The notes below the pieces were generated by a model. It saw nothing but the letters and a program-made list of their open reading frames with translations, was not told the origin of the DNA and made no database searches. Below are positions 18,432 through 50,969 of a stretch of DNA of 64,000 bases, in pieces. The position numbers and the translations under genes were made by a program. Positions within the stretch are counted from its first letter, which is position 1. The number at the start of each line of letters is the position of its first letter. Origin of the DNA: a virus (lineage: Duplodnaviria > Heunggongvirae > Uroviricota > Caudoviricetes); IMG/VR virus record IMGVR_UViG_3300050026_000241; one strand, 5' to 3'.

Positions 18432-18459
18432 TTGACTTCTACGAAAAAGGTGGTATGAT
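18432..18459 (+). promoter_or_regulatory. sigma70-like promoter cassette
   Basis: TTGACT-N16-TGgTATGAT; ATG 18466 leaderless. Confidence 0.6.
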
Positions 18460-18465
18460 TGAGAT

Positions 18466-18711
18466 ATGAAGACTGTCACCTTAACCGAAGCCGAAGCCAG
18501 ACGTGTTTACGAGCTTCTCGGCGGCTCGTGTCCGTTGGACCCGCTTGAGCAACGTATGGCCGACAAAATAGCCAGAGTGTTACTGTGCGTAACGCCGTAC
18601 CCAAAGCGGCCGGCAGCGCGTCGGGCATATCCAGGCGACCCGATACGTGGCGACCCGATACGTGGCAACCTCACCGACAAAGTAACGGAGTCATTACATG
18701 GCATCAACTGA
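18466..18711 (+). CDS. hypothetical protein, paralog pair member 1
   Basis: cassette promoter, leaderless; LTEAEARRVYELL...MADKIAR; GDPIRGDPIRG from 15-nt tandem repeat. Confidence 0.45.
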   Translation: MKTVTLTEAEARRVYELLGGSCPLDPLEQRMADKIARVLLCVTPYPKRPAARRAYPGDPIRGDPIRGNLTDKVTESLHGIN

Positions 18712-18874
18712 CATCGACGGCTCGACCATCGTGATACTGTCCGAGGCGGAAGCCGTGCGGGTGTACGAACACTTATGCAACATTTCCGCCAACTGGACGT
18801 TCGACAAACTGGACCACCAGATTGCCGACAAACTCTCCCGCGACCTTAACCTTCCACCACTTGGCCAGGATTGA
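18698..18874 (+). CDS. hypothetical protein, paralog pair member 2
   Basis: LSEAEAVRVYEHL...IADKLSR; 58 aa, not in track; approximate. Confidence 0.35.
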   Translation: MASTDIDGSTIVILSEAEAVRVYEHLCNISANWTFDKLDHQIADKLSRDLNLPPLGQD

Positions 18875-18877
18875 ATC

Positions 18878-19147
18878 ATGCAGATCGTAAGATTGTCCGA
18901 ACGCAACCTATTGTCCCTTCTTCACAAGATGGTCATGCCGGGCAGCGCCCGCGAGATCATCAAGTGGAGCGAAGATCAGCCGGGCGTGCCGTCCGAGCAA
19001 GTCGCCATCCGTGTCGCCACCGACGACGAAGTGTACGGCGCTCGCCGGCCCGGCGAAATGCACCCTGAGACGGAAAGTTTCATTGCCTACCTGCGTGTGC
19101 AAGTCGCCAGAATCACCGCCGAAATGTACCCGAGTGAGCAGCAATGA
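18878..19147 (+). CDS. hypothetical protein
   Basis: 89-aa ORF. Confidence 0.45.
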   Translation: MQIVRLSERNLLSLLHKMVMPGSAREIIKWSEDQPGVPSEQVAIRVATDDEVYGARRPGEMHPETESFIAYLRVQVARITAEMYPSEQQ

Positions 19148-19248
19148 GTTGGGACCAGTGGTTCAATCTTGGTTTCAGCATCTTCCTGATCGCCGTGTTC
19201 CTGTACGGCGATTACTTGAACCGGCGTTGGTATAAGAAGCATCCCTAA
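19144..19248 (+). CDS. very small TM protein
   Basis: 34 aa; ATGA overlap; approximate. Confidence 0.25.
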   Translation: MSWDQWFNLGFSIFLIAVFLYGDYLNRRWYKKHP

Positions 19249-19267
19249 CCCACAGGCAACAGTAATC

Positions 19268-19804
19268 ATGGATACGTATTTTCGTGCTTCCAGCGTTCAA
19301 CCCGAGCTTCTTCCTCTTGACAAAGAGTATGGCGACTTGTTGGAGGGTATTGACGACAATGCTGCAAGCACCGGCGTCGATGCAGACTACGCGAGGCATC
19401 CTTACAGACCTGATGGCACACAGTGGTCCGAAACCGTCGCAAAATACCTTGGTTTCACGATAATGGAATCATTGGCCACCTGTTTCGACGGCTCTGGCTG
19501 TGTCATTCTTAGTCGGTGTGAAAAGTCCATCTTCGTTCCTGAGACACACCCGGCAAGACGTTTCAAGTTCCTGTCGGTTCTATCTATCAGCTACGAGGAA
19601 GACATTATCGTAGCAATACGCGACGAGGCCGCTCTGCTTCAATACTATCGGCTGATAGAGTCGTTCCTTCGTCTCACGACGGACAATAGTTTCCAAGACA
19701 CCACCCGAGGTCCGAGCAAAGGTGGCTGGGACCAGGGCAGGAATTGGAAAGCTATTGCCGATAGCCGCAAAGCCTACTTTGACGCCCACCCAGATCAGAA
19801 GTAA
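19268..19804 (+). CDS. hypothetical protein
   Basis: 178-aa ORF. Confidence 0.5.
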   Translation: MDTYFRASSVQPELLPLDKEYGDLLEGIDDNAASTGVDADYARHPYRPDGTQWSETVAKYLGFTIMESLATCFDGSGCVILSRCEKSIFVPETHPARRFKFLSVLSISYEEDIIVAIRDEAALLQYYRLIESFLRLTTDNSFQDTTRGPSKGGWDQGRNWKAIADSRKAYFDAHPDQK

Positions 19805-19819
19805 CCAAAGGAAGTAACC

Positions 19820-20005
19820 ATGAGACCTTTCCTTGAGACTTTCGGCTACGGTGCCATAATCATCCTTCTGCTACTCGGTATGCAAGGTGGCGGGCAGACT
19901 GTGGGTCAATTCATCGTGTCGATGGGTTGCCTCTTCCTATTTGGGGCTGTAGCCCGGTTCCTGGTTGAACTCGGCAAGGACTTCTACCGTTTGTTGAAGG
20001 GGTAA
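19820..20005 (+). CDS. small membrane protein
   Basis: two hydrophobic segments. Confidence 0.4.
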   Translation: MRPFLETFGYGAIIILLLLGMQGGGQTVGQFIVSMGCLFLFGAVARFLVELGKDFYRLLKG

Positions 20006-20006
20006 C

Positions 20007-20144
20007 ATGCGTCGGTTTCAAGAGGTTTGTGTCTGGACGATGTTCACCATCGGCCTCGCACTGTTGTCAATTCGCCTTTGGCCGGTCGTCCTGGTAGGGC
20101 TTCTGGCCTACGGCATTGTTAGCTGCAAACTGTGGAGAAAGTGA
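20007..20144 (+). CDS. small membrane protein
   Basis: 45 aa, hydrophobic; approximate. Confidence 0.3.
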   Translation: MRRFQEVCVWTMFTIGLALLSIRLWPVVLVGLLAYGIVSCKLWRK

Positions 20145-20257
20145 TGGACGCCGCCTACTACATTCATCACTTTCTCGTCGGCTTCCTCTCCCTTGTCGTC
20201 GTAACCGAGAAGATTTGTTACGCCGTCGAAACCTACATTAAGGACAACTATCCATGA
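20145..20257 (+). CDS. small membrane protein
   Basis: 37 aa; ATGA overlaps both sides; approximate. Confidence 0.3.
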
Positions 20258-23062: not shown

Positions 23063-23329
23063 ATGAGAGAGACCGAACTACTGAATGCCCTGGCACTTAG
23101 CAAGCCCGGCATCGAGATTCGCATGTGCAAAGGGCACAAAGTCTCGGTGCGGATGCGCGGCGAGCCCTTAGTGTGCGGCATCGGCACGACGCTTATGGAA
23201 GCCGCCATTGACTGTGCCCACTGGGTTTTCGACGTGTGTGCTGACCGCCCCGAGTTGGAAGAAAAGATTCCCGAAGTCCTGGCCGCTTTGTGTGCCTATG
23301 ACGAACATTCACAGGGTTTACAACTATGA
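23063..23329 (+). CDS. hypothetical protein
   Basis: ATG 16 nt after T7-like promoter motif ending ~23047. Confidence 0.45.
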   Translation: MRETELLNALALSKPGIEIRMCKGHKVSVRMRGEPLVCGIGTTLMEAAIDCAHWVFDVCADRPELEEKIPEVLAALCAYDEHSQGLQL

Positions 23330-23430
23330 ACGCCACCGACCGGTTGTTGGCACTTTTGGCTTTTGGCGTGCTGATGGGCTTTGCGCTTTGCACGGCCACC
23401 GCCATGCTCATTGCACTGTTCACCCGATAA
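23326..23430 (+). CDS. very small TM protein
   Basis: 34 aa; approximate. Confidence 0.25.
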   Translation: MNATDRLLALLAFGVLMGFALCTATAMLIALFTR

Positions 23431-23447
23431 CCCATACGACACGAACT

Positions 23448-25821: not shown

Positions 25822-26387
25822 AAAACCCCGGCGACCAAGTTATACCGAAGTCAATGATACGCACGTTCCAAAGCGACTTTCGCATTCTGGACGAGTGGAC
25901 CATTGAGTATGAGGAAGACGGCGAGGCGTTGGTCGGTCGGTTTTGCACCAACGGGCAGTGTTGCCATAATGTGTCCGATAAGTTAGCATCCATCTACCCT
26001 TGTCCGGCCGACGTACCGATACATAAGTACGTCCGGCACGAAATGATACACATTGCCCTGGCCGCGTTGTTCGGCCCGGACGAGCCTTACGGCGTCCGAC
26101 GCCGGTTGGAGGAAGAGTTCGTCCAAGACGTTTGCGCCTTGACCCAAAGCAATGGAGAAACCATGAGTCCCGAGCGATTCCCCGAAATGACCGCCACACT
26201 GGCCGAAGACCGGCCCGAATACCTCCCACTCCCCGTCTGCGTTTACGGTGAGCGGACAACAATTTCCTGTTGGCGTTTGAGTTTGTGGGAAAGGCTCAAG
26301 CTGCTGTTCACCGGCCGCTTGTGGCTGCTGGTCCTGAACTTCCGGCAGCCGTTACAGCACAACTTGAACGCAACAAACGCAACATAG
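25818..26387 (+). CDS. hypothetical protein with HExxH motif
   Basis: RHEMIHIALAALFG; GTG start (alt ATG 25854). Confidence 0.4.
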   Translation: MKNPGDQVIPKSMIRTFQSDFRILDEWTIEYEEDGEALVGRFCTNGQCCHNVSDKLASIYPCPADVPIHKYVRHEMIHIALAALFGPDEPYGVRRRLEEEFVQDVCALTQSNGETMSPERFPEMTATLAEDRPEYLPLPVCVYGERTTISCWRLSLWERLKLLFTGRLWLLVLNFRQPLQHNLNATNAT

Positions 26388-31613: not shown

Positions 31614-31641
31614 TTGACTTCTGCGGAAAGGGTGGTATAGT
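31614..31641 (+). promoter_or_regulatory. sigma70-like promoter cassette
   Basis: TTGACT-N16-TGgTATAGT; leaderless ATG 31648. Confidence 0.55.
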
Positions 31642-31647
31642 TGTAGT

Positions 31648-31821
31648 ATGATGACACTAACACTGATCGCCTACAGCCTGTTTGTTCAACTGCCACTGGT
31701 GGCCGCCTGCGGCCTGATGTGGTTGGCGATGATGTGGCGTGACTTGTGGTGCGATGCCTCCGAGGCCACCCAAGAGGCCGAGGCGATTACCCGCGATTTC
31801 ATCTTTGGGGAGAGACATTGA
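31648..31821 (+). CDS. small membrane protein
   Basis: cassette promoter, leaderless; 57 aa; approximate. Confidence 0.35.
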   Translation: MMTLTLIAYSLFVQLPLVAACGLMWLAMMWRDLWCDASEATQEAEAITRDFIFGERH

Positions 31822-36138: not shown

Positions 36139-36143
36139 TTGAC

Positions 36144-36171: not shown

Positions 36172-36295
36172 TGAGTATGGACACAACCAAGAACCGACAG
36201 CGTGACGCCTACACCTTCGCCTACACCTTCGCCAACACCAACCTGTTGGGTCGGTCCACTTTTCCAAATGGCTCAACTAGACCTGGGAGATTGAT

Positions 36296-36493
36296 ATGCA
36301 CGAAGTTGAATTTGTAAGCGCCCGATACCTGGAAATGGCCGCCGCGCATCCGGGCCTGATTACCAGAAGCCGCCCGGTAATGATCGAACGGCGGATACTC
36401 GACAGGCGAACGACCGACCGGCGCGAAGTTGACCGCTGCGATTCAGTAGCACAACTGCTACGGGCCGCCTTTCCCGAATTCGGCCGCGCTTGA
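36296..36493 (+). CDS. hypothetical protein
   Basis: 65 aa; lies between the duplicated promoter/5'-end copies. Confidence 0.4.
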   Translation: MHEVEFVSARYLEMAAAHPGLITRSRPVMIERRILDRRTTDRREVDRCDSVAQLLRAAFPEFGRA

Positions 36494-36517
36494 CTTCTCC
36501 GAAAAGGATGCTATGAT
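36490..36517 (+). promoter_or_regulatory. sigma70-like promoter cassette
   Basis: leaderless ATG 36523. Confidence 0.6.
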
Positions 36518-36522
36518 TGAGT

Positions 36523-37368
36523 ATGGACACAACCAAGAACCGACAGCGTGACGCCTACACCTTCGCCAACATCAACCTGTTGGGCCGGTGCAACTGTGAT
36601 TGTTTCTTCTGCTTGGGTAAGGATATTCCCGAGCTATTACAGCAACATGACCAGCGGGCCGTCCACTTTTCCAAGTGGCTCAACTGGTGGGCCTTCCTTC
36701 GTCGCTGCTGTGACGAGGGTGTGTCCAAGCTGTACGTCACCGGGCAGAACACCGATTCATTACAGTACGTCCACTTGCAGGAATTGATCGACTTCCTGCA
36801 TCGCCAACGCTTCCAAGTCGGGCTGCGGACCAACGGCTATCTCGCATCAAAGCGGCTGGCCGTAATCAACAGCACTGACCTGAGCGTGGGCTACAGCATC
36901 CATTCGATCATCCCGGCCACGACCAGGGCCATTCTCGGTCGAAGCGACATTCCCGATTGGGACATGCTTCTCACCGAGACCGAACGGCCGCGCGTGCAGA
37001 TCGTCGTCAATCGCTACAACAAGACCGAATTCTGGCCGCTGCTTGAGCACATCGCCAGCTTCCCAAAGGTCCGCTACGTTCAGGTGCGGCGGGTTTGCTC
37101 CGACACGCGAGAGCCCGAGTTGACGCCGGACATTGAGGCACACGACCGGCTGCATGACGAAGTTCGGCAACTCTACCCGCTCAAGAAGATCATCTACGGA
37201 AGCGCGGAAGTCTACAACATTTACGGCAAGGAAGTAGTCTTCTGGCGCACGGTCAAGACAACGGCCAACTCGCTCAACTACTTCACGGACGGCACCGTGA
37301 GCGACCAGTATTTCATTGTGGAGGGCTACCAGAAATACTGCGGCCGGGAGTGCGCCAATGCCAACTGA
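36523..37368 (+). CDS. radical SAM protein
   Basis: cassette promoter, leaderless; CNCDCFFC (CxxxCxxC). Confidence 0.7.
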   Translation: MDTTKNRQRDAYTFANINLLGRCNCDCFFCLGKDIPELLQQHDQRAVHFSKWLNWWAFLRRCCDEGVSKLYVTGQNTDSLQYVHLQELIDFLHRQRFQVGLRTNGYLASKRLAVINSTDLSVGYSIHSIIPATTRAILGRSDIPDWDMLLTETERPRVQIVVNRYNKTEFWPLLEHIASFPKVRYVQVRRVCSDTREPELTPDIEAHDRLHDEVRQLYPLKKIIYGSAEVYNIYGKEVVFWRTVKTTANSLNYFTDGTVSDQYFIVEGYQKYCGRECANAN

Positions 37369-38728: not shown

Positions 38729-39040
38729 ATGAGCGAACCAATTTACGCAATACCGGGCACCAGAATCATCGGTGCAAAATTGTCAGTCGGCACGACCCTC
38801 CGGGTCCACGGCTGGATCATGCTGAAAAACCTTGACGAAGGCGATTACGTCATTACGTCGGTCGGTTACTTCTACAACAATCCTTGCTACACCTTTCGCA
38901 AGGCGCGGGGCCGCAAGCGGGTTTGCTGCCACTTTGCCAATGACGTTGACCGTTGCGTCCGCCCGGCCGGCGACATCGACCTTAACAGGATTGAGATATT
39001 GGCCGTTGGCGAGCGGCGGCCGGTCGAAATCCCGGCTTGA
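38729..39040 (+). CDS. hypothetical protein
   Basis: cassette promoter, leaderless. Confidence 0.55.
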   Translation: MSEPIYAIPGTRIIGAKLSVGTTLRVHGWIMLKNLDEGDYVITSVGYFYNNPCYTFRKARGRKRVCCHFANDVDRCVRPAGDIDLNRIEILAVGERRPVEIPA

Positions 39041-39064
39041 CTTTTCTCCGGCACATGGTAGAAT
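39037..39064 (+). promoter_or_regulatory. sigma70-like promoter cassette
   Basis: TTGACT-N16-TGgTAGAAT; leader to 39095. Confidence 0.55.
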
Positions 39065-39094
39065 TGAACATCAATCAAGCAACAGGGAGCAGCA

Positions 39095-39550
39095 ATGTCA
39101 ACCACGAAACTACCGCACGAAACGAAGATTATTCAGTTCGAGCGGGCACACGCGACCGTCATTTTCAAAAACGAGTTGAGCGCCGCGACGGGCAAGCGTA
39201 TACCCCGGCTTTACGTCCAGTGTATCGACCAATATGGCTATCAGCGCGAATGGTCTTTGCAACGCACCCACAAGCCCGGCGATTCCAGCACAACCTACTG
39301 GGAGAGCCACATCTACCAGCACCCCGGCCGCCGTGAGATAACAGAAGTGAGCGATTCGATTGCCGCCCGGTGTATCGGCCGTTTCCTCTATTTGTGTGAG
39401 AATTACCCCACCCTCTTGTTCAACGAAACCGCGATACGGGCGCAGAACGCGCCGAACGGTACGCCGGACGTGCGGCCCCGTTCCGAGGGGTTTGTCCACT
39501 TTGCCGAAGCCCTGCACCGGGGCGCGCGGCCTACCGCGAAAATGCTCTAA
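39095..39550 (+). CDS. hypothetical protein
   Basis: cassette promoter + leader AACAGGGAGCAGCAATG. Confidence 0.55.
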   Translation: MSTTKLPHETKIIQFERAHATVIFKNELSAATGKRIPRLYVQCIDQYGYQREWSLQRTHKPGDSSTTYWESHIYQHPGRREITEVSDSIAARCIGRFLYLCENYPTLLFNETAIRAQNAPNGTPDVRPRSEGFVHFAEALHRGARPTAKML

Positions 39551-39585: not shown

Positions 39586-39586
39586 A

Positions 39587-39817: not shown

Positions 39818-40375
39818 ATGATCGAATTCATGCCCGAACCAACTTTGATTTTGGAAAACAAAGACGACCTTGCCGCCCTTCTCGACACGAAGCCGGAAGC
39901 CGAAATTCGTTTGCACCGTCACCGTATCAAGAGCCGTTGGCTTATCGGCCTGATCGACGAAATCGCCGCTTCCGGCCGTTACCCCTACAACGCCACGGTG
40001 AACAAGTTGGCTTGCGAGCGCCTGGGCTACCCGCCGAAATCCGAAGCCGAGTATTCGCGTGAGGGCACTGCCCTATCCTGGCTTATTTACAACGCGCAGA
40101 ACTTCCGGCGTAGCGACCAGTTTATCGCGGCCGGCTACACCCCGTTTACGCCCGCCATGCTTGACGAAGCGTACACCATCGGGGCGAAGGTCGAAGTGGC
40201 GGCCGAAACGCTGCTAGGCGGTTCCGCCGTCATCGTCCTAACCCCGAAGGACATCGACGGCAAACTCTACGCCGTGCTGCCGCGCAAGCGGACCCAGCAC
40301 TTGCCGCCGATGGGTCAACCGGCGAAAATCATCAAGGCCGGCAAGCGGGTGAAAAAATCCGTTGCCGCCGCTTGA
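39818..40375 (+). CDS. hypothetical protein
   Basis: 185 aa; co-transcribed. Confidence 0.5.
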   Translation: MIEFMPEPTLILENKDDLAALLDTKPEAEIRLHRHRIKSRWLIGLIDEIAASGRYPYNATVNKLACERLGYPPKSEAEYSREGTALSWLIYNAQNFRRSDQFIAAGYTPFTPAMLDEAYTIGAKVEVAAETLLGGSAVIVLTPKDIDGKLYAVLPRKRTQHLPPMGQPAKIIKAGKRVKKSVAAA

Positions 40376-40399
40376 CTTCTCACCGGCACATGGTATGAT
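40372..40399 (+). promoter_or_regulatory. sigma70-like promoter cassette
   Basis: canonical; leader to 40434. Confidence 0.6.
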
Positions 40400-40433
40400 T
40401 GAGTAAGTTCAAACTACAACAGGGAACAACACA

Positions 40434-40868
40434 ATGATCGAACAGCTAGACCAGATTTTCACGACTGTCAACGTATCGCACGACATTCCTGAGCAGCGAG
40501 TACGCGATTTGCTTTGTTCCGCCTGGGAGGGCGGTAGCAATTACTGGTGCAACTACAAGAGCCGCACCATGTCTATCACCGGCCTGAGCGAAGTCAATCG
40601 GATTCGACGGGAACGGAAAGCGGCCGGAGAAGACTTCTATGTCCATGAGTACCCTTTCATCGACGGGGTTGCCCTGATACTCGAAGTCAATGACGAAGAT
40701 GACCCCCGGCCCCTGACCCTGGACCGCGCCGCGCTGATTCGCGGGTTGCAAGTCATGGCGGAAAAGTACCCCCGCCAATTCCACAATTTTCTGATTGAGA
40801 ATGATGACGCCGAAACCGGCGACACATTCCTGCAATGCTGTCTTTTCGGTGAAACCGTTTACGGCTAA
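40434..40868 (+). CDS. hypothetical protein
   Basis: cassette promoter + full conserved leader. Confidence 0.55.
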   Translation: MIEQLDQIFTTVNVSHDIPEQRVRDLLCSAWEGGSNYWCNYKSRTMSITGLSEVNRIRRERKAAGEDFYVHEYPFIDGVALILEVNDEDDPRPLTLDRAALIRGLQVMAEKYPRQFHNFLIENDDAETGDTFLQCCLFGETVYG

Positions 40869-41208: not shown

Positions 41209-41236
41209 TTGACTTCTCCGATTCACATGCTATGAT
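41209..41236 (+). promoter_or_regulatory. sigma70-like promoter cassette
   Basis: TGcTATGAT; leader to 41271. Confidence 0.6.
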
Positions 41237-41270
41237 TGAGTAGACTTCAATCACAACAGGAAACCAGACA

Positions 41271-41684
41271 ATGAGCAACAAAATCATTACCGTGTCGAAC
41301 CTTGATGAATTCGCCCGCGCCTACGTCGAAGCGGCCTTATGGTCTACCACCGACGAATCGGACGAACAGGGCGGCGAACCAATGGACCAGAATTATGACG
41401 CCTGGGATGTTGACCCGGAAACGCTGAGAGGCATGGCCGCCGACTGTGCCGAGTTCCAAGCGGAAAACGCCGCCGACTTGGCGCTCTACAACGCCCCGCA
41501 ATGGACGGCGGCCGAATTGGGCGGCCACGATTTTTGGTTGACCCGCAACGGCCACGGTTGCGGCTTCTGGGACCGCAATGGTATCCTGCCGGAAGATGCC
41601 GGCGAGCGCCTGACCGCTGCCGCCAAAAAGTACGGGGAAGTATACCTCTATATTTCTGATAGTGGCATGGTTTGCAGTAACTAA
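41271..41684 (+). CDS. hypothetical protein (GHDFWLTRNGHGCGFWD motif)
   Basis: cassette promoter + leader. Confidence 0.55.
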   Translation: MSNKIITVSNLDEFARAYVEAALWSTTDESDEQGGEPMDQNYDAWDVDPETLRGMAADCAEFQAENAADLALYNAPQWTAAELGGHDFWLTRNGHGCGFWDRNGILPEDAGERLTAAAKKYGEVYLYISDSGMVCSN

Positions 41685-41690: not shown

Positions 41691-41718
41691 TTGACTTCTC
41701 CGAATCACATGCTATGAT
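41691..41718 (+). promoter_or_regulatory. sigma70-like promoter cassette
   Basis: leader with (CA)n to 41779. Confidence 0.6.
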
Positions 41719-41733
41719 TGAGTAGACTTCAAT

Positions 41734-41764
<31 letters not shown>

Positions 41765-41778
41765 CAGGGAGCAACACA

Positions 41779-42288
41779 ATGCAGACTTTCATTTACCGTT
41801 GGCAAGAGCGAGCCGGGGTCGAAGGCACCCGGCGGGGCGAAATCGACGGCCCTATTCACGAAATCCGGGGCGATGCCTACGCCCTTTGGACCGTCGCCAA
41901 GCAGCTTGAATTGCCGGTGCGCCCTTTCTGGTCCGAATTCACCGACCTTGACGGCAATGCCGCCGACATCTGGGGCGCCAGTATAGCCGCGAAAACCGAG
42001 CGGCTACGCCCGCCAACGGAGTTGCTTTGGATTCGCATTGGCGATGCCGGCGACTACGCTTCCTTTACCGACCTTGACGCCGCCATTGACGACCTGAACA
42101 TGATGGAAGTGGGCACCGTCGATTATTGGCTTGACGGCGGGGTAGGAATTGGATTCGCTACCTGGAATTACCACGGCCACGATTTTGTTTCATTCTTCTG
42201 GGGCGATGCCGAAGCCAATCTGATTCGCGCCTTGAACGCGGATGAAAAAGCCTACACCGAAAACAACCTAGAAGCGTACCTGAACTAG
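41779..42288 (+). CDS. hypothetical protein
   Basis: cassette promoter; leader contains (CA)~14. Confidence 0.55.
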   Translation: MQTFIYRWQERAGVEGTRRGEIDGPIHEIRGDAYALWTVAKQLELPVRPFWSEFTDLDGNAADIWGASIAAKTERLRPPTELLWIRIGDAGDYASFTDLDAAIDDLNMMEVGTVDYWLDGGVGIGFATWNYHGHDFVSFFWGDAEANLIRALNADEKAYTENNLEAYLN

Positions 42289-43468: not shown

Positions 43469-43506
43469 GGCCGGGCAGATCGTTTCCGCCCGGCCTATTT
43501 TTATTT
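43469..43506 (+). terminator. intrinsic terminator candidate
   Basis: GGCCGGGC...GCCCGGCC stem + TATTTTTATTT. Confidence 0.5.
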
Positions 43507-43532
43507 GACTTCTTGCAATCACATGCTATGAT
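43505..43532 (+). promoter_or_regulatory. sigma70-like promoter cassette
   Basis: leaderless ATG 43539. Confidence 0.6.
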
Positions 43533-43538
43533 TTAGGT

Positions 43539-43724
43539 ATGAGTACAATTCAAGCAAAGGATTTAGTCGAGGGTCAAACGGTCGAAACTCGCAAGGGTGT
43601 CAAGACAGTAAAGACCAGCGGCTACCTTAACGAGAAACTTTGGCGGCTGGAATTCACCGACTGGGAAATCTGCCTTTGCCGGCATGACCACCCATTTCCC
43701 ACTACATCGGAGCGACCAGCATGA
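43539..43724 (+). CDS. hypothetical protein
   Basis: cassette promoter, leaderless. Confidence 0.5.
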   Translation: MSTIQAKDLVEGQTVETRKGVKTVKTSGYLNEKLWRLEFTDWEICLCRHDHPFPTTSERPA

Positions 43725-44083: not shown

Positions 44084-44111
44084 TTGACTTCTGCCGTTTA
44101 CGTGATATGAT
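44084..44111 (+). promoter_or_regulatory. sigma70-like promoter cassette
   Basis: leader to 44150. Confidence 0.55.
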
Positions 44112-44149
44112 TGAGTAGGTTCACAACGCAACACAACAGGACTACCGCA

Positions 44150-45028
44150 ATGAATGATAATCGAGCCAAGTATCAGGCCCTCCGCAACGCCGGCAAACTG
44201 ACCGGCACAATCGAAGCCGCCGTGAGACTGCGCGACAAGAGAGCCGCCGCGAAGCCCCAAAAAGTTTCTGGCAAGTGGAAGCAAAATCTTCGTGCCAAGT
44301 GGGTCCGTTCAATCCCCCTGGGCAGTAACGACCGCGCCGCCGCCTATGCAATCGGCCGAGAATTGCGCTCGCATATTCGCAACTTTCACGATGTTTCGGC
44401 GAGTATCGAGACGAACAACGGCCGGGGTTGCACGGTCATCGACCGTGACGCCGGCCGGTATGGCGGCCCTTGCACATACCGCAAGATTGAGCATACTATC
44501 TTTGTCACGTCCTACGGCCGCACCGACGGGCGCGTGCTAACCTATCGGTTGTTTACGACCGATAAGACCATCAAGGCCCCCTTCGGCTACCGATGGGGTT
44601 ATGATTCCAACGGTATCAAACTCTACGCCATTGCCCGCCCGGCCGACGATTTTCACCCGGACACTGCCGACTTGGCGGCCGGTAGCAAGCATTGCGTGGA
44701 AAAGCTGAAGCGCAACGCCGAAACCCGGTGCAAGTGCGTAGGTGAAACGAAGCATCAAATTGCATTGATTCGCAAGGCCGAGCGGGAGGGATTGTCTGTC
44801 TGCCTTGCGGACAGCTTGAAAGCCGGCAACTGCCGGGCCGGCACAATCGCATGGGCCAATCGACACGGCTTTTCAAACGGACAGCACTACAAGCCGAGCC
44901 AACTGCTTGCGGACGCCAACGGCGATACGCCGCGCGTGGCCCTGGTGGTAGCGGTAGCGCTACGACGCCACCGCCGCGAAATGGAGCAAGGGTACGCCGT
45001 GCTTGCCGAGCATCTTGACCCCGGCTAA
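44150..45028 (+). CDS. hypothetical protein
   Basis: cassette promoter + long leader (track M... upstream residues are leader). Confidence 0.55.
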   Translation: MNDNRAKYQALRNAGKLTGTIEAAVRLRDKRAAAKPQKVSGKWKQNLRAKWVRSIPLGSNDRAAAYAIGRELRSHIRNFHDVSASIETNNGRGCTVIDRDAGRYGGPCTYRKIEHTIFVTSYGRTDGRVLTYRLFTTDKTIKAPFGYRWGYDSNGIKLYAIARPADDFHPDTADLAAGSKHCVEKLKRNAETRCKCVGETKHQIALIRKAEREGLSVCLADSLKAGNCRAGTIAWANRHGFSNGQHYKPSQLLADANGDTPRVALVVAVALRRHRREMEQGYAVLAEHLDPG

Positions 45029-45043: not shown

Positions 45044-45071
45044 TTGACTTCTGCCGGGCACATGCTATGAT
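45044..45071 (+). promoter_or_regulatory. sigma70-like promoter cassette
   Basis: leader to 45116. Confidence 0.6.
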
Positions 45072-45115
45072 TGAGTAGGTTCACAACGCAACACAACACA
45101 ACGCAACAGGAAACC

Positions 45116-45616
45116 ATGACCATGACAGCCGCCACTATCACGCCCGAAACCGCCGTAACGATCAACGAAGAGCAGCAGCTTTACGTCATTCCCTCTTACC
45201 GCAATGGCAAGGTCGGCGGCTACTCATGCCTGGGCTTCGACTACCTTTTGCAACGGGCCAACGCCGTTGCCGATTGGCTTATCAGCGAAAGTCAGCACGC
45301 CACCCGGATACCGGCCGAAGACCGGGGCACGCCCCGCGCCTACGGTGCTTACCTGGCCCTCATGTCCCAGGGGAGCGCCTACAATCAGCGCACCGGCAAG
45401 CGATGCAACGGCGAACTAGAGCCGCAACTGATTGGCCTTGAAAACAAGCGGGTAGAAGTCACCTATGACGACGGCCGCACCGGGCGCTTCTGGGTGGGCA
45501 AGTCAACCGGGTGGATGCCTTGCCACTTGGAAATCAAACGCCGTGACAGCACAGGCGGGGGCGCGGTTTGCGGCCCTTACAAGCGCGTTCGCGTAGTCAG
45601 CAGCAACCGCCGCTAG
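45116..45616 (+). CDS. hypothetical protein
   Basis: near-identical promoter/leader to 44150 gene. Confidence 0.55.
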   Translation: MTMTAATITPETAVTINEEQQLYVIPSYRNGKVGGYSCLGFDYLLQRANAVADWLISESQHATRIPAEDRGTPRAYGAYLALMSQGSAYNQRTGKRCNGELEPQLIGLENKRVEVTYDDGRTGRFWVGKSTGWMPCHLEIKRRDSTGGGAVCGPYKRVRVVSSNRR

Positions 45617-45696: not shown

Positions 45697-45726
45697 TTGA
45701 CTTCTTGACGGTAGTATGCTATACTC
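45697..45726 (+). promoter_or_regulatory. sigma70-like promoter cassette (variant)
   Basis: TTGACT then TTGACG; -10 TATACT at 18-nt spacing; leaderless ATG 45732. Confidence 0.45.
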
Positions 45727-45731
45727 TAAGT

Positions 45732-46520
45732 ATGAAACCACCTTTCACCTATCAGGGGAACAAGACCCACTATGCGAAAGAGATTCTTTCGCATATCGAC
45801 CCGGCCCGTAACGAATCGTTTTACGATTTGTGTTGCGGTTCCGGGGCAATCTCGATTGAGCTAATCAATCAGGGGTTTCGGCCTAAGTCAATCACGATGC
45901 TTGACAAAGGCCCCTGGGGTCTATTCTGGGCGGAAGTGGGCAAGGGCACTTTTGACCTTGACAGATTCGCGCAGTATTGCCGTGAATTGCCCGAACCGGC
46001 CGACGTGAAACGACACTTGGAAATGCTTGCCGAGCGACCGGCAAGCCTTGACACTGTTTGCGTTTTTCTATTGCTGCAATCGGGCACTTTCGGCGGGGTT
46101 GCCGTTTGGATTGAAAACGGACGATGGGCAAAACAAACAGGGTTCCGGCCCTATTGGACCCCTACCGCCACGTCGAAATGCCGCTACCCTACGCGCACCG
46201 TGCCGAATGACCTGCCGAAAAAGGTAAGGGCAATCTGTGAGAGTATGAGGGGAATTAAGGGAATCTGTACTGATATAGGCGACTTCCGGCCCGGCCCTGG
46301 CAACGTCTACATCGACCCGCCTTATCAGGGAACGGGCGGATATGGGCACAATTTTGACGTGCTAGGGTGTGCCCGGCGAATCGGCCGTTGTTTCGTTTCC
46401 GAAGGCCGCCCGCTATCGGCAACAGCTTGGCAGCTAGGCGAGCGAAAGAAGGCAAGCGCCGTCTACAACGGCCGGGGAGTTGCCCCTAATCAGGAATGGC
46501 TTTCGCTAATTTTGCCTTGA
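45732..46520 (+). CDS. DNA adenine methyltransferase (Dam-like, D12 class)
   Basis: PFTYQGNKT N-terminus; motif I CCGSGAISIE; VYIDPPYQGTGGY. Confidence 0.75.
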   Translation: MKPPFTYQGNKTHYAKEILSHIDPARNESFYDLCCGSGAISIELINQGFRPKSITMLDKGPWGLFWAEVGKGTFDLDRFAQYCRELPEPADVKRHLEMLAERPASLDTVCVFLLLQSGTFGGVAVWIENGRWAKQTGFRPYWTPTATSKCRYPTRTVPNDLPKKVRAICESMRGIKGICTDIGDFRPGPGNVYIDPPYQGTGGYGHNFDVLGCARRIGRCFVSEGRPLSATAWQLGERKKASAVYNGRGVAPNQEWLSLILP

Positions 46521-46544
46521 CTTCTGCCGGGCACATGGTAAGAT
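46517..46544 (+). promoter_or_regulatory. sigma70-like promoter cassette
   Basis: TGgTAAGAT; leaderless ATG 46551. Confidence 0.55.
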
Positions 46545-46550
46545 TCAAGT

Positions 46551-47111
46551 ATGAGCAACGGGACAGCGACCATTGAAGCGACCATTGAACGGATTGCGGC
46601 CGAATTCCAGACAAGGAAACCGGCTAATTATCAGTTTGACGCCTTTCAAAAGTACAAAAAGGCGACAGCCTTGCGGGAGGGGAAAGTTGCCCCGGCCGCA
46701 CCCGCCGCTTTCGACCCGGCAACAGTCAAGGATACTCGCAAGCAAACCTTTACAACGCAACGCGACGGGCAAGCCGAGTTTCGCAAGCAACTGATTGCGG
46801 CATACGGCGGCAAGTGTGCCGTCACTAGCAATAGGGTTGAGGCTATTTTAGAAGCCGCGCATATCACCCCTTACAAGGGTGAGGATTCAAACCACGTTAG
46901 CAACGGCTTGCTTCTATCTGCCGAGTTGCACATCCTTTTCGACCGGGGCCTGATTGCCATTGACCTATCGGGTTGCCTTCTGGTTTCCTCTAAGCTAACG
47001 GGAAGCATTTACGAAAGCTACAAGGGCAAGCGAGTCGCAATGCCGGTTGACCCGGCGAATCGACCGAGCCGCAAGGCACTTGACCGACACCGAGAAACTT
47101 TCATACCCTGA
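46551..47111 (+). CDS. HNH endonuclease (HNH_2-type)
   Basis: GGKCAVTSNRVEAILEAAHITPY...NGLLLSAELHILFDRG. Confidence 0.6.
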   Translation: MSNGTATIEATIERIAAEFQTRKPANYQFDAFQKYKKATALREGKVAPAAPAAFDPATVKDTRKQTFTTQRDGQAEFRKQLIAAYGGKCAVTSNRVEAILEAAHITPYKGEDSNHVSNGLLLSAELHILFDRGLIAIDLSGCLLVSSKLTGSIYESYKGKRVAMPVDPANRPSRKALDRHRETFIP

Positions 47112-47969: not shown

Positions 47970-48197
47970 ATGGGAACCTGCCTTGGAACCTACTTGCTAC
48001 GCGAAATCGAAACATCGACCGACGAACCGACAGGCATCATCCTCTCGTTCAAAAGCGAGGGCCGCCGTATCGAGTTTGCCGCTACGCATGAGGCAAGAGC
48101 GGGTTGCCACTTTGAAACCGGGTATCAGGACGAAAACGGCAAGCCGCAAAATTTAGATTCATTTGACTTCTGCCATACACATGGTAGAGTTGTTTAG
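47970..48197 (+). CDS. hypothetical protein
   Basis: AGGGAGGATGGTGGTAATATG RBS; may extend upstream to include TM LILALLLVVIGAVWF; 3' end encodes next cassette promoter. Confidence 0.4.
   Translation: MGTCLGTYLLREIETSTDEPTGIILSFKSEGRRIEFAATHEARAGCHFETGYQDENGKPQNLDSFDFCHTHGRVV
48163..48190 (+). promoter_or_regulatory. sigma70-like promoter cassette inside 3' end of upstream CDS
   Basis: TGgTAGAGT; leader to 48226. Confidence 0.55.
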
Positions 48198-48225
48198 AGT
48201 TCAACAACACAACAGGGTGCAAACC

Positions 48226-48690
48226 ATGACAAAGTTTATTATCGCTTTCACCTGGGTTACAACGATCTTCGGCATTGCCTACTGGCTTACGTCGAACAAA
48301 CCGGCCCCGACCCTGGCAACGTCACCGCAACCGCAACCGGCAAGTTCTATCCCGCCGATGGTCAATCCGTCACAACCATTAGAATTGCAAAAAGCGATAG
48401 AAGAGGCGGATGCCTCTTGTGTCAGCGTAATTCAACGGTACAGATGTGTGGAAGCTAACATGCCCGCAAATACTATCCTGCTAGACCAAAGCGGGCAACG
48501 TATTGAGGCTTGGAAGTTTTTGGATGATACCGCATTTTGTGCCAAACGGGCACAAGATTTTTTAGACCGGAGGATTGCCCCGGCAGCGTTTGTAAACACA
48601 GTACACACTTGGCAACGCAAGTATTCCGATCTTAAAATATACGACCCTGAAAACGGCGTCTACGTAACCGTCGTCCCGCACTTTCAATAA
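48226..48690 (+). CDS. membrane-anchored or secreted protein
   Basis: N-terminal hydrophobic FIIAFTWVTTIFGIAYWL. Confidence 0.55.
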   Translation: MTKFIIAFTWVTTIFGIAYWLTSNKPAPTLATSPQPQPASSIPPMVNPSQPLELQKAIEEADASCVSVIQRYRCVEANMPANTILLDQSGQRIEAWKFLDDTAFCAKRAQDFLDRRIAPAAFVNTVHTWQRKYSDLKIYDPENGVYVTVVPHFQ

Positions 48691-48706: not shown

Positions 48707-48734
48707 TTGACTTCTGCAAACCACATGGTATAGT
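48707..48734 (+). promoter_or_regulatory. sigma70-like promoter cassette
   Basis: TGgTATAGT; leaderless ATG 48741. Confidence 0.55.
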
Positions 48735-48740
48735 TTCATT

Positions 48741-48920
48741 ATGAGCAACCGTACCGCGCAAGAGATACTAATGGGCCTTGCCCGCCGATGGGCCGCCGAC
48801 GATTGTACCGATCTAGTATTAGATATGCTTGAAAAGGTACTCGACTTGACGCATGAGGATACCTTGCGCGACAACTTCCAAGCCGACATTGAAGAAGAGG
48901 AATCAAAGGAACCGGAATAA
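48741..48920 (+). CDS. acidic small protein
   Basis: cassette promoter, leaderless; 59 aa; approximate. Confidence 0.4.
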   Translation: MSNRTAQEILMGLARRWAADDCTDLVLDMLEKVLDLTHEDTLRDNFQADIEEEESKEPE

Positions 48921-49321: not shown

Positions 49322-49323
49322 AC

Positions 49324-49351
49324 TTGACTTCTCACAACCACATGGTATAGT
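49324..49351 (+). promoter_or_regulatory. sigma70-like promoter cassette
   Basis: identical -10/start context to 48707 copy; leaderless 49358. Confidence 0.55.
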
Positions 49352-49357
49352 TTCATT

Positions 49358-49723
49358 ATGAGCAAGCGAAAACCGAAAACCGAACCGGCTTACGAGCCGC
49401 CCGCGCCCGAGCCGATGAATACGATTGCCGGGGTTCAAGCCGAGTACAATCGTCAATATGAGCGATACGCGGCCGCGCGCAAGGCATGGTATGACGCGAA
49501 CCCCTACGTTCGCGGCGAGAATCGGGTTTATCCTGGCCTCACCATCGACTATGACGGCATGGGCGGGTTGCTTGTCAAGGCGATTCAAGCCGAGTACGGC
49601 TTCTCCGAAGCCCGCGCCGGCGCAGTCTACGGCCTTGCGTATGAGAAAGGCCACTCGTCCTTCAGTGACGTGTTTTGCTACGCTTACGAGTTTGCCGATT
49701 TTGTCAAGGGGTTGCCGGCATAG
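49358..49723 (+). CDS. hypothetical protein
   Basis: cassette promoter, leaderless. Confidence 0.55.
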   Translation: MSKRKPKTEPAYEPPAPEPMNTIAGVQAEYNRQYERYAAARKAWYDANPYVRGENRVYPGLTIDYDGMGGLLVKAIQAEYGFSEARAGAVYGLAYEKGHSSFSDVFCYAYEFADFVKGLPA

Positions 49724-49726
49724 CAA

Positions 49727-49762
49727 CCAGCATGACAACCAGCATGACAACCAGCATGACAG
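49727..49762 (+). repeat. 12-nt tandem repeat CAACCAGCATGA x3 spanning a start codon
   Basis: seen directly. Confidence 0.75.
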
Positions 49763-49971
49763 ACCCGGCCCACACAATCGTTATGGTTGCCAAGACCCAC
49801 AAGGGCTATCTGCCGGGCTACTTGAACCACTACGGGCGGAAGCTAGGGCGGCAACTGTATCGGCAAACCCGGTACGGGGCCGCCACCTATCTCCGTTCCT
49901 TGACCCACGAAGGCCGCCGACTCGTCTACTTTCGGCATGACAACCTTGTGAACCCCGCGCCCGGCCAATGA
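49732..49971 (+). CDS. hypothetical protein with MTTS N-terminal repeats
   Basis: start lies in 12-nt repeat caaccagcatga x3. Confidence 0.4.
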   Translation: MTTSMTTSMTDPAHTIVMVAKTHKGYLPGYLNHYGRKLGRQLYRQTRYGAATYLRSLTHEGRRLVYFRHDNLVNPAPGQ

Positions 49972-50159
49972 ACAACGAAGCCAACAGTTACCTACCCCTT
50001 GACCCGCGACTAGCCGATTGTATGAAACGGACGATACAATTCTGCCGAGCCGCCACCGAAGACCCTACACCGTTCAAGTTGAACACCGCCCGCATGTGGC
50101 TTACCAACTTGGAAGGGTGGCTACCCGAACAACCCTTAACACCCGGAGAATCAGTATGA
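49968..50159 (+). CDS. hypothetical protein
   Basis: 63-aa ORF. Confidence 0.45.
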   Translation: MNNEANSYLPLDPRLADCMKRTIQFCRAATEDPTPFKLNTARMWLTNLEGWLPEQPLTPGESV

Positions 50160-50386
50160 TTATCAAAATCAATAGCGAAGCCGTGGCCGAATTGTTTTTC
50201 GCCGCCCGGCGACTTCTCTACAACACGCCTTACACAACCGCCCTGGCCCCCAGCCTTGACCAGCTTCGCAATGCCTTGGCCGCCTTTGCCCTGGCCCCGC
50301 CCGTCAAGGCCCTGGCCCTGCGCAAGAAGGCCGCCAAGAAGGCCGCCAAGAAGGCCCCGCGCAAGAAATCGAAATCCTGTGCTTGA
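50156..50386 (+). CDS. hypothetical protein with basic KKAAKKAAKKAPRKK tail
   Basis: ATG inside track ORF 50018..50386. Confidence 0.45.
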   Translation: MIIKINSEAVAELFFAARRLLYNTPYTTALAPSLDQLRNALAAFALAPPVKALALRKKAAKKAAKKAPRKKSKSCA

Positions 50387-50410
50387 CTTTCGCGCGGCAC
50401 ATGATAGAGT
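50383..50410 (+). promoter_or_regulatory. sigma70-like promoter cassette
   Basis: TGaTAGAGT; leaderless 50417. Confidence 0.5.
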
Positions 50411-50416
50411 TGTCTT

Positions 50417-50698
50417 ATGAACAAATCAACAGTCGAAGGCAATTACATCGAAAACGGAATCCTCTATAACCGCCTGGGCAGGGTGGTTGACCCCGGTATC
50501 TGCCGACAATACGGATGGGATTGTCCGGTCGGGCAAGCCGCCGCCTATGACAAGTATTGTGAGCGGGTTGCCGCCGAATACCATGCCGCCTGGCGTAATG
50601 CCCCGGTATCACATGAGGAAGCGGCCGAAATGCGGGCCGCCTTCGGCCCCGGGGCGGAGGTTGTCAACGTGTTCACCGGCCGCCGTCATCGCACCTAA
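50417..50698 (+). CDS. hypothetical protein
   Basis: cassette promoter, leaderless. Confidence 0.5.
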   Translation: MNKSTVEGNYIENGILYNRLGRVVDPGICRQYGWDCPVGQAAAYDKYCERVAAEYHAAWRNAPVSHEEAAEMRAAFGPGAEVVNVFTGRRHRT

Positions 50699-50716
50699 AC
50701 GGCCAAAAGTTTCGAC

Positions 50717-50744
50717 TTGACTTCTTGCAATCACATGCTATGAT
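50717..50744 (+). promoter_or_regulatory. sigma70-like promoter cassette
   Basis: leaderless 50751. Confidence 0.6.
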
Positions 50745-50750
50745 TTAGAT

Positions 50751-50969
50751 ATGAGCGACGAACTTGCTATCCTTGACGCCCTGTGGACAACGCTCCGTAT
50801 CCGGTTGCACGGTCCTTTCATCGGCGTAGGATATTTCATTGTGAAAGACCTGGGGGCCTGTGCCGAGAGGATTTGGACCGGGGAAGATTGGGGCCGTGCC
50901 CCGAAATACTACCCCACCTTGCAAGCCGCCTTTGACGACTTGCCTAACATCTGCCGGTTTCTGACTTGA
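50751..50969 (+). CDS. hypothetical protein
   Basis: cassette promoter, leaderless. Confidence 0.5.
   Translation: MSDELAILDALWTTLRIRLHGPFIGVGYFIVKDLGACAERIWTGEDWGRAPKYYPTLQAAFDDLPNICRFLT

Follow-up and report, generated by a model that had tools for sequence, protein, structure and literature searches.

A repeated sigma70-type promoter cassette with predicted leaderless and leadered gene starts in a probable virus genome from a metagenome

We analyzed a DNA stretch of 64,000 nucleotides (hereafter the window) from the IMG/VR virus record IMGVR_UViG_3300050026_000241 (Caudoviricetes), in which nearly every small gene between 10.7 and 62.6 kb carries its own copy of a promoter cassette of about 40 bp. 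A systematic scan of the window for TTGACT(T) followed by TANNNT at 16-18 nt revealed 43 cassettes with a downstream open reading frame (ORF) on the plus strand, from 10693 to 62625, as well as two further irregular variants on the same strand at 18283 and 53608 (table 1). The minus strand contained seven weak hexamer matches, none of which had the architecture of TTGACT, 16-nt spacer, and extended -10. An earlier sequence-only reading of this DNA gave positions 18432-50760 for its finding; the array is far larger.

The cassette has the organization of a sigma70-type promoter: TTGACT, a 16-nt spacer, and an extended -10 (TGN) followed by TATGAT. The -35 hexamer is TTGACT, a five-of-six match to TTGACA, in 41 of the 43 cassettes, and the spacer is 16 nt long in 41 of 43; the commonest -10 hexamer, TATGAT, likewise matches TATAAT at five of six positions. 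A sigma70 scan credited the copies, TG extension included, with matches at 9-10 of the 12 consensus positions, and TG was found one base ahead of the -10 in all family copies flagged as positive by that scan. The 17-mer TGGTATGATTGAGTATG occurs 19 times with up to three mismatches, compared with 0.07 expected. Among 171 distinct copies from the window and its relatives, the conserved core reads C-TTGACTTC, then CACATGG-TATGAT-TG, and weaker conservation was observed for an upstream (AAA)TCCGGC and a discriminator TGAGTA; the -35 positions are near-invariant in these copies, which is partly built in, as the scan itself demanded them. Conservation of the spacer exceeds what sigma70 would need; the spacer might be bound by a shut-off factor as its operator, be methylated (CCGG, CATG), or simply be alike through shared ancestry. 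In leadered cassettes such as that at 55077-55115, CCGGC tends to be present both just upstream of the -35 and in the spacer (tCCGGC-TTGACTTCTCC-CCGGC-ACATGG).

Most cassettes begin 0-20 nt past the upstream stop codon, and the intergenic space contains little else. The upstream ORF stops with the TGA of TTGACT in 12 of 43 cases; this is close to the expectation for one frame in three and was therefore read only as tight packing. The early promoter set of phage T4 is comparable in size to this array.

Two forms of the cassette were distinguished by the position of the start codon. In the leaderless form, represented by 16 of the 43 cassettes, the ATG that opens the ORF (46-306 amino acids) lies 5-8 nt past the -10, the gap being 6 nt in 11 copies, 5 nt in four, and 8 nt in one. 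Only 3.7% of the background TANNNT sites of the window have an ATG at 5-8 nt (binomial P-value ~1e-12), and a gap of exactly 6 nt was found for 11 of 43 cassettes versus 0.7% of the background (P-value ~1.6e-14). When the -35 element is absent, TANNNT-N5-8-ATG with a long ORF occurs five times on the plus strand and six times on the minus strand, that is, at chance level. All 14 ATGs named in the sequence-only reading lie directly behind a TTGACT-N16-(TGN)TANNNT promoter, with the motif ...CTTGACTTCT-N-CACATGG-TATGAT-N5/6-ATG ahead of them. Its class of about 17 leaderless copies is real at 16 of 43, with 36177 and 54161 to be added to the starts it named, and the usual gap is 5-6 nt rather than the 6-7 nt it gave. 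Its remark that most of these genes begin with Met-Ser holds for only seven of 16, and about a quarter of the leadered genes do so as well; 'MS' was rejected as a leaderless signature because it was judged equally common in leadered genes.

In the leadered form (27 of 43), the ATG is located 21-64 nt from the -10, corresponding to 15-58 nt from the predicted transcription start (+1). A Shine-Dalgarno (SD) sequence, AGGGA(G) or AGGAA, precedes the ATG by 7-9 nt (consensus TGAGTAAGTTCAAAACACAACAGGGAGC), in agreement with the earlier description of these copies as carrying an AGGGAG SD; the SD is a genuine one at canonical spacing. The leader consensus opens with TGAGTA(A/G)GTTCA, continues through an A/C-rich middle (CAACACAACA), and closes with AGGGAGCAAC-ATG, and the leaders are A/C-rich and unstructured. 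In 118 distinct leadered copies from the window and its relatives, AGGGA(G) was present in 65 and AGGAA in 23, ending 7-9 nt before the ATG.

Within the window, the spacers of the two forms differ (CGAA-type vs. CCCCGGC-type). Separate promoter subtypes for the two forms were rejected, as relatives hold leaderless copies with the CCCCGGC spacer; the promoter core is thus common to both forms. The sequence-only reading had also proposed that the ATG of the leaderless copies sits exactly where the leader begins. The literal overlap with the leader start, GATTGAGTATG, was found in two copies (36163 and 36509) but not in the others, although a related sequence, GCTTGAGCATG, is present in the copy at 52523.

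The ATGs of the leaderless form appear to be genuine initiation codons, on which seven lines of evidence agree; the possibility, raised earlier, that they are not the true starts was checked in this way and the starts were supported. The most telling line comes from four ortholog groups that keep the same first Met in leaderless and SD-led forms (described below). No in-frame ATG, GTG, or TTG with an SD was found inside the first ~30 codons of the leaderless ORFs, the sole SD-like alternative starts being codon 31 of the gene at 50751 and codon 42 of that at 48741, and the space upstream of the leaderless genes is taken by the promoter, with no SD there. In the 45732 protein, position 1 of the Pfam D12 methyltransferase profile falls on residue 7. 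In the 36523 protein, the alignment with radical SAM profiles starts at residues 16-17, and the CX3CX2C motif, as read from the sequence, lies inside the first ~30 residues; the true N-termini of these two proteins therefore cannot lie further downstream. The proteins predicted from 10728, 33546, 36523, 45732, and 46551 are identical to IMG gene calls, which is weak evidence as it reflects only the choice of a gene caller.

Properties of the 5' ends point in the same direction. The first 40 nt of 34 distinct predicted leaderless mRNAs fold with a mean of -3.3 kcal/mol, compared with -8.3 kcal/mol for internal windows of the same genes (P-value = 2e-13), and codons 2-11 are A-rich and G-poor. 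The starts of leadered genes share this unstructured, A-rich initiation-site signature. Substitutions between leaderless orthologs, counted in ten non-independent pairs, were distributed over codon positions 1/2/3 as 21/13/48 for codons 2-25 and 9/4/17 for codons 2-8. Wherever a codon at 5-6 nt opens a long ORF in the window and its relatives, it is ATG (41 of 41) and never GTG or TTG, which fits the dependence of leaderless initiation on AUG stated in the abstract of one source (PMC8459731). The ATGs lie at the +1 expected for sigma70, and the suggestion that transcription starts at the AUG and gives leaderless mRNAs is supported by these lines as a prediction.

To place the window among known genomes, we compared it with phage and metagenome collections. 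Megablast of 10 kb against the INPHARED phages gave no matches. Searches with tblastn, using single and concatenated proteins, detected only remote matches in the phage collection: the Thg1-like protein matches Mycobacterium and Rhodococcus phages at ~51%, the radical SAM protein matches huge uncultured phages, and no T4-type phage was among the matches listed. The window itself is part of a JGI (Joint Genome Institute)/IMG metagenome contig of 97,254 bp. Near-identical pieces of the window are present in other JGI and Logan assemblies, and a pattern scan of metagenome contigs detected 76 loci (referred to by L numbers), ~60 of which contain 2-11 cassettes each. The JGI prefixes of the related contigs presumably denote bog and peat samples. 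When a looser promoter pattern was applied to IMG/VR, most hits were isolated sites of a generic sigma70-like kind from unrelated viruses, and only L001 and L002 showed the family cassette with leader. Distant relatives that have only some proteins in common with the window (L055, L088, and L001/L002) carry the cassette as well, and both forms were found in L055 and L088.

The distance from the -10 to the ATG is two-peaked in the relatives too, with 31 copies at 5-6 nt and a broad peak at 32-36 nt. After deduplication there are 44 leaderless and ~120 leadered copies, so that ~26% are leaderless. Of the ortholog groups, 51 in all, 11 have leaderless members only, 36 have leadered members only, and four are mixed. 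In the MRTILFIVALL group the gap is 6 nt in L122, whereas L124 and L060 have a 44-nt leader, and the first 33 coding nucleotides are identical. The MKLFRP group has 8 nt in the window (54125) and L061 and 21 nt with GAAAGG in L103, and the MITK(G/R) group has 5 nt in L088, 21 nt in the window (51501), and 35 nt with AGGGAG in L091. The gene at 50417 is leaderless in the window and has a 40-nt leader in L109. These groups bear out the proposal that the two forms are insertion and deletion derivatives of each other, and the abundant slippage-type tandem duplications in the leaders offer a plausible mechanism of leader gain and loss.

Tandem repeats were observed in leaders at 41734-41762, 53197-53242, 58322-58345, 60627-60650, 61081-61114, and 62207-62256, several of them doubling the SD unit; the repeat units are (CA)14.5, a 21-nt unit (x2.2), GCAACAGGGA (x2.4, twice), (CAACG)x6.8, and AACAACGCAACAGG (x3.6). 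Coding regions also contain many 12-, 15-, and 21-nt in-frame duplications. Ahead of three cassettes, a 12-nt unit that holds the -35 region or a near variant is present in 3.7-4.7 tandem copies (50958-51008, 61763-61806, and 62117-62172; units TTTCGACTTGAC, CTTAACTTTCGA, and CGACTTGAGAAT); they could have arisen by slippage or could provide additional binding sites.

Gene content and order vary between relatives, and a further role of the cassettes is that of joints at which gene modules recombine. The ends of blastn blocks shared with L091, L076, L083, and L104 fall at cassette positions. In L091, positions 1953-2654 correspond to window 57632-58338 and positions 6583-6989 to window 50998-51418, while positions 3626-4144 match window 58668-59177 and are directly followed by a block (4079-4597) that matches window 55070-55584, the junction being inside a cassette. 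The sequence-only reading had overlooked this role. A composite terminator-promoter of the promoter early stem-loop (PeSL) type was considered and rejected, since terminator-like sites are not enriched between the genes of the window (31 vs. 24.3 expected) and sequences of 50 nt taken from directly upstream of cassettes show no stronger folding than controls (-11.6 vs. -10.0 kcal/mol, P-value = 0.07). T-runs were found upstream of cassettes in eight of 44 cases.

The radical SAM gene has a second copy of its cassette and of its first ~100 nt at a distance of 346 nt upstream (36143-36258 vs. 36489-36592, 93-98% identity); the duplication resulted in a second leaderless cassette ahead of a truncated 46-amino acid ORF. 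The region of ~110 nt behind the variant promoter at 18283 contains a long perfect hairpin (GGGGACAGACAAAAAG...CTTTTTGTCTGTCCC) and may encode a phage small RNA. L072, L085, L104, and L075 also have cassettes followed by hairpin-forming sequence and no ORF.

The first 36,000 nucleotides carry an unusually heavy load of genes for nucleic-acid modification and repair. Genes in the left part of the window code for several DNA methyltransferases, a glycosyltransferase, a nuclease, an RNase T-like exonuclease, a Thg1-like enzyme, a second radical SAM protein, two SPFH proteins, and a C39-like peptidase (table 1). Among the cassette-driven proteins, a radical SAM enzyme, a D12 methyltransferase, and an HNH endonuclease have a profile match, and no Pfam match was found for 20 small ones. 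The gene at 28601-29185 encodes an extracytoplasmic function (ECF)-type sigma factor (NCBIfam TIGR02937, 44.5 bits vs. a cut-off of 42.9; Pfam Sigma70_r4_2 below cut-off), which probably directs a later promoter class. The TnpB/Cas12f-like gene (region 26367-27778) lies between perfect 19-bp inverted repeats, AACGCAACAAACGCAACAT at ~26368-26386 and its reverse complement at ~27759-27777, and looks like a compact insertion sequence-like insertion; the repeat is made of a AACGCAACA unit that recurs in cassette leaders. As a host tracer this gene was uninformative, its only match (32%) being to a Nodularia metagenome-assembled genome. No tRNA genes were found in the window, and no Rfam families at the gathering threshold. 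At positions 63825-64000, GCCCC-type repeats run into more than 100 consecutive C at the end of the window, ~1.2 kb beyond the end of the cassette array; the tract may be a genuine homopolymer, or it may have arisen in sequencing or assembly, as a poly-G/C read artefact where a fragment or genome ends.

Table 1. Promoter cassettes (all on the plus strand) and other annotated features of the window
Position	Feature	-10 to ATG (nt)	ATG	Details
10693..10730	Leaderless	5-7	10728	TTGACT, TGG-TATATA in family register (or TATATT); ORF 10728-11648, 306 aa; exact protein among IMG gene calls
11732..11826	Leadered	64	11824	TTGACT-16-TATACT; GGAG SD; ORF to 12315
18283..18425	Variant			TTGACT-16-TATACT, no TG; then ~110-nt structured RNA, no ORF; minimum free energy -40.1 kcal/mol, z -3.3
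18432..18468	Leaderless	6	18466	TATGAT; ORF to 18711, 81 aa
28548..28603	Leadered variant	25	28601	TCGACT-16-TATAAT; AGGA SD; ECF-type sigma factor gene 28601-29185
31614..31650	Leaderless	6	31648	TATAGT; ORF to 31821, 57 aa
33512..33548	Leaderless	6	33546	TATGAT; ORF to 33872, 108 aa
36144..36179	Leaderless	5	36177	Duplicate copy; truncated 46-aa version of N-terminus of 36523 gene
36490..36525	Leaderless	5	36523	TATGAT; radical SAM protein, ORF to 37368, 281 aa
38695..38731	Leaderless	6	38729	ORF to 39040, 103 aa; L076 ortholog likewise leaderless
39037..39097	Leadered	30	39095	AGGGAG
40372..40436	Leadered	34	40434	
41209..41273	Leadered	34	41271	
41691..41781	Leadered	60	41779	Includes (CA)14; AGGGAG
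43505..43541	Leaderless	6	43539	ORF to 43724, 61 aa; four diverged orthologs leaderless at 5 nt
44084..44152	Leadered	38	44150	
45044..45118	Leadered	44	45116	
45697..45734	Leaderless	6	45732	TTGACT-17-TATACT; D12-class adenine methyltransferase, ORF to 46520
46517..46553	Leaderless	6	46551	TAAGAT; HNH endonuclease, ORF to 47111; TGA stop of upstream gene within -35 hexamer
48163..48228	Leadered	35	48226	
48707..48743	Leaderless	6	48741	TATAGT; ORF to 48920
49324..49360	Leaderless	6	49358	TATAGT; ORF to 49723
50383..50419	Leaderless	6	50417	TAGAGT; ORF to 50698; L109 ortholog with 40-nt SD leader
50717..50753	Leaderless	6	50751	ORF to 50969
51002..51067	Leadered	35	51065	12-nt tandem repeat of -35 region upstream (50958-51008)
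51501..51552	Leadered	21	51550	GAAGGA; ortholog leaderless in L088, 35-nt leader in L091
52043..52105	Leadered	32	52103	
52504..52539	Leaderless	5	52537	TATGCT; ORF to 52740; L093 and L110 orthologs leaderless too
53162..53246	Leadered	54	53244	21-nt tandem duplication including SD
53608..53692	Variant		53690	Irregular -10 (TATATA at 15 nt); leader with hairpin; AGAGGA
54125..54163	Near-leaderless	8	54161	ORF to 54508; L103 ortholog with 21-nt leader
55087..55153	Leadered	36	55151	
56236..56295	Leadered	29	56293	
56984..57057	Leadered	43	57055	
57633..57696	Leadered	33	57694	
58270..58353	Leadered	53	58351	Duplicated GCAACAGGGA
58670..58730	Leadered	30	58728	
59129..59208	Leadered	49	59206	
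59740..59801	Leadered	31	59799	
60337..60409	Leadered	42	60407	TTGACA
60584..60656	Leadered	42	60654	Duplicated GCAACAGGGA
61046..61130	Leadered	54	61128	(CAACG)x6.8
61800..61854	Leadered	24	61852	12-nt tandem repeats upstream (61763-61806)
62169..62260	Leadered	61	62258	Three tandem AACAGGAAC SD-like units; 12-nt tandem repeats upstream (62117-62172)
62560..62625	Leadered	35	62623	
1850-2494, 7743-8516, 15193-16095, 45732-46520	DNA methyltransferase-like genes			At least four
2424-3965	Fused FkbM methyltransferase and glycosyltransferase			
23208-24194	Thg1-like enzyme			
26392-27726	TnpB/Cas12f-like gene			444 aa
29412-30515, 36523-37368	Radical SAM proteins			
30970-31584	C39-like peptidase			
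32406-32969, 35587-36138	SPFH/Band 7 genes			

The element is most likely the uncultivated mobile genome of a large bacteriophage. Its small genes in one direction, phage-type functions, and IMG/VR relatives suggest an early hyperplastic region of such a phage, read by the host polymerase. We consider it likely, judging from the sequence, that the window holds an early-gene array built on one promoter cassette for a host sigma factor, with both leaderless and leadered initiation, and that the cassette also provides homology for recombination. The cassette would serve as a near-consensus promoter for the host housekeeping sigma factor, from which RNA polymerase would initiate ~7 nt past the -10. 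In 16 of the 43 cassettes, +1 would then be the A of the ATG or lie within 1-2 nt of it, and the 5'-terminal AUG of the transcript would be bound by the ribosome with initiator tRNA, the SD being uninvolved. Transcripts of the other 27 would carry an A/C-rich, structure-poor leader of 15-58 nt with AGGGAG or AGGAA, allowing canonical initiation by the small ribosomal subunit. Since the sequence past the -10 travels with the gene and 47 of the 51 ortholog groups are uniform, the initiation mode would be heritable per gene module, flipping occasionally by small indels in the stretch from the -10 to the ATG (as in the four mixed groups). The conserved promoter core would be the homology stretch at which related genomes recombine and shuffle modules. 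The analysis directly shows how the cassettes are built, with the associated statistics and conservation, the marks of true start codons, and the breakpoints of recombination, whereas transcription start sites, the sigma factor used, the timing of expression, and leaderless translation are all elements that we infer.

Several observations weigh against this interpretation. It presumes a host that would be able to translate leaderless mRNA. Each gene is probably also present on read-through transcripts, as terminators are not enriched and read-through from upstream cassettes is likely, and on such transcripts an ATG of the leaderless type would be internal and have no SD. The 5-nt gap of four copies would force transcription to start at position 6, and the 8-nt gap is expected to give a leader of 1-3 nt. 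Moreover, no virion structural genes were found in the window, so that the designation as a phage draws on the IMG/VR relatives, the PHROG-type functions, and the style of the genome.

The cassette might instead be primarily a PeSL-like recombination module, whose two states arose mostly as neutral side effects when joining was imprecise or slippage occurred, rather than through selection for two translation modes. Cassettes do coincide with breakpoints of homology and with changes in gene order, the spacer is conserved beyond the needs of sigma70, tandem duplications are found in -35 regions and leaders, and a cassette has been partly duplicated together with the 5' end of its gene. However, the gap shows two sharp peaks, one at 5-6 nt and the other from ~15-20 nt upwards together with an SD, and almost nothing between; only ATG is used at +1, 47 of 51 groups keep their state, and the 5' ends are unstructured. 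These features suggest purifying selection on functional initiation in both states, and we regard the neutral origin as possible but unlikely; it is compatible with an array of host-read early genes rather than exclusive of it. Considerably less probable is that the apparently leaderless ORFs are read from internal positions of polycistronic mRNAs, by SD-independent initiation or re-initiation, with transcription starting upstream or a few nucleotides off. The position of the start site is only a rule of thumb, read-through is likely given that neither intrinsic terminators nor upstream hairpins are enriched, and several cassettes lie 0-20 nt from the upstream stop, which for 12 of 43 upstream ORFs is the TGA of TTGACT itself. 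Yet an exact 6-nt gap in 11 of 43 cassettes versus 0.7%, and the recurrence of 5-6 nt in relatives, would be inexplicable if the distance were irrelevant; the stop-to-ATG distance of ~30 nt or more is too far for classical coupling, and the ATG-only rule fits the requirement of leaderless initiation given in the abstract of PMC8459731.

It is very improbable that a phage factor reads the cassette, be it the ECF-type sigma factor (gene 28601-29185) or a phage RNA polymerase whose gene would lie beyond the window, and that the genes belong to a middle or late class. The sigma gene is indeed present, and the unusually conserved spacer CACATGG and the upstream CCGGC could contact an extra factor. 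On the other hand, TTGACT, the 16-nt spacer, and TGN-TATGAT together match 10 of 12 sigma70 consensus positions in addition to the extended -10. ECF sigma factors do not have the domains needed to read a TG-extended -10 with TATGAT, and they typically use other -35 and -10 motifs, which argues for a host sigma factor rather than a phage one. Furthermore, the sigma gene is itself located behind a cassette, as expected for an early gene, and the cassette-driven genes are small and have no known relatives, as is typical of early genes.

Building on the array of host-read early genes, it is conceivable, if doubtful, that the two forms constitute a programmed translational switch, in which the ~16 leaderless genes would be translated at other times or under other conditions than the ~27 leadered ones. 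All cassettes would fire together, and the phage or a stressed host might shift the balance between 70S/leaderless and 30S/SD-dependent initiation; the lever might be the levels of initiation factors IF3 and IF2, taken from the proposal for phage phiYS40, or else ribosome modification. If so, temporal gene classes would be set by translation initiation and not by promoters.

Should the early-gene interpretation hold, the array would represent a natural replicated experiment, in which dozens of genes have the same strong promoter and differ only in an SD leader of ~30 nt. Ortholog pairs with the same coding start (L122 vs. L124; window 54161 vs. L103) would be ready-made constructs for measuring the cost and benefit of a leader across bacteria, and the compact, probably very strong promoter, available with and without a 5' untranslated region (UTR), could suit synthetic biology. 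Considering that a quarter to a third of the early genes have been kept leaderless across diverged relatives, the host probably handles leaderless mRNA well. The leaderless fraction has been predicted at 39% for Deinococcus-Thermus, 19% for Actinobacteria, 16% for Deltaproteobacteria, 13% for Acidobacteria, and only a few percent for most other groups (PMC3160421, Table 2); the leaderless share of the array points to leaderless-rich phyla and could serve host prediction for metagenomic viruses.

Each ingredient of the array is already known, from leaderless genes in Deinococcota and Actinobacteria, from phiYS40, and from Cluster O mycobacteriophages. The bacterial leaderless signature is a TANNNT ~12 bp upstream of the start (PMC3160421); experiments in Deinococcus have validated it, showing that the spacing is critical and that an added -35 gives a boost (PMC12340547), and 47% of the mRNAs of D. 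deserti start exactly at the initiation codon (PMC4007540). As in these genes, the -10 lies ~6 nt before the start, there is no SD, and +1 would fall at the start codon (PMC12340547, PMC3160421, PMC4007540, PMC4633059). Leaderless-rich bacteria also have leaderless and SD-led genes under one housekeeping sigma factor (PMC3160421, PMC12340547), and their orthologs change initiation mode over evolutionary time (PMC3160421). Together with the prediction of both outcomes in Cluster O mycobacteriophages (PMC4351075), this means that calling two initiation modes on one promoter unusual, as had been done for this DNA, was overstated. What differs here is that the genome is mobile or viral rather than chromosomal and uses ATG only, and that, unlike many leaderless promoters of Deinococcus, which depend mainly on a -10, a single conserved cassette has a strong -35 and an extended -10.

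The closest parallel for the arrangement is provided by the PeSL cassettes of T4-type phages. According to the abstracts describing them, dozens of early-promoter modules flank small variable genes with no assigned function in hyperplastic regions, and breakpoints of insertion, deletion, replacement, and rearrangement between related phages lie in the modules; these abstracts contain no mention of a leaderless form (PMC2839356, PMC4122927). The cassettes described here have no detected terminator or stem-loop component and belong to an apparently unrelated lineage with an unrelated promoter sequence, so that promoter cassettes as recombination joints would be extended from PeSLs to another lineage and to a cassette free of a terminator. 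To our knowledge, the early genes of T4 are all leadered.

The middle and late promoters of Thermus phage phiYS40 have an extended -10 and are not known to have a -35. A large share of its genes, middle and late, are leaderless from host-polymerase promoters (Sevostyanova et al. 2007, as summarized in PMC3594737), and the leaderless state is described in that summary as a temporal class linked to changed IF2 and IF3 levels (PMC3594737). As far as this summary goes, phiYS40 resembles the present genome in having many leaderless mRNAs from host polymerase, predicted in our case; in contrast, one promoter type with a strong -35 bears both forms here, with no known link to timing. In Cluster O mycobacteriophages (Corndog and relatives), some SigA-like promoters were predicted to give leaderless mRNAs, transcription beginning on the first base of the start codon (PMC4351075). 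They likewise show both outcomes in one phage genome, from strongly predicted promoters common across the cluster, but their 8-9 promoters head operons, with no per-gene cassette and no documented switching between orthologs (PMC4351075). The cI mRNA of phage lambda starts from PRM at its AUG (Shean and Gottesman 1992, as cited in PMC12340547); on the basis of that citation, it differs in coming from one regulatory gene, in a host with poor translation of leaderless mRNA, rather than forming a genome-wide architecture. By contrast, phiKZ showed no leaderless transcripts (PMC8244752), and the transcripts of AR9 have UTRs of 26-491 nt (PMC5312081). No description of this lineage or arrangement was found in the literature searched. 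What is new is the combination: a conserved cassette repeated about 45 times, in two discrete forms that are stable yet interconvertible, and acting as a recombination joint without a terminator.

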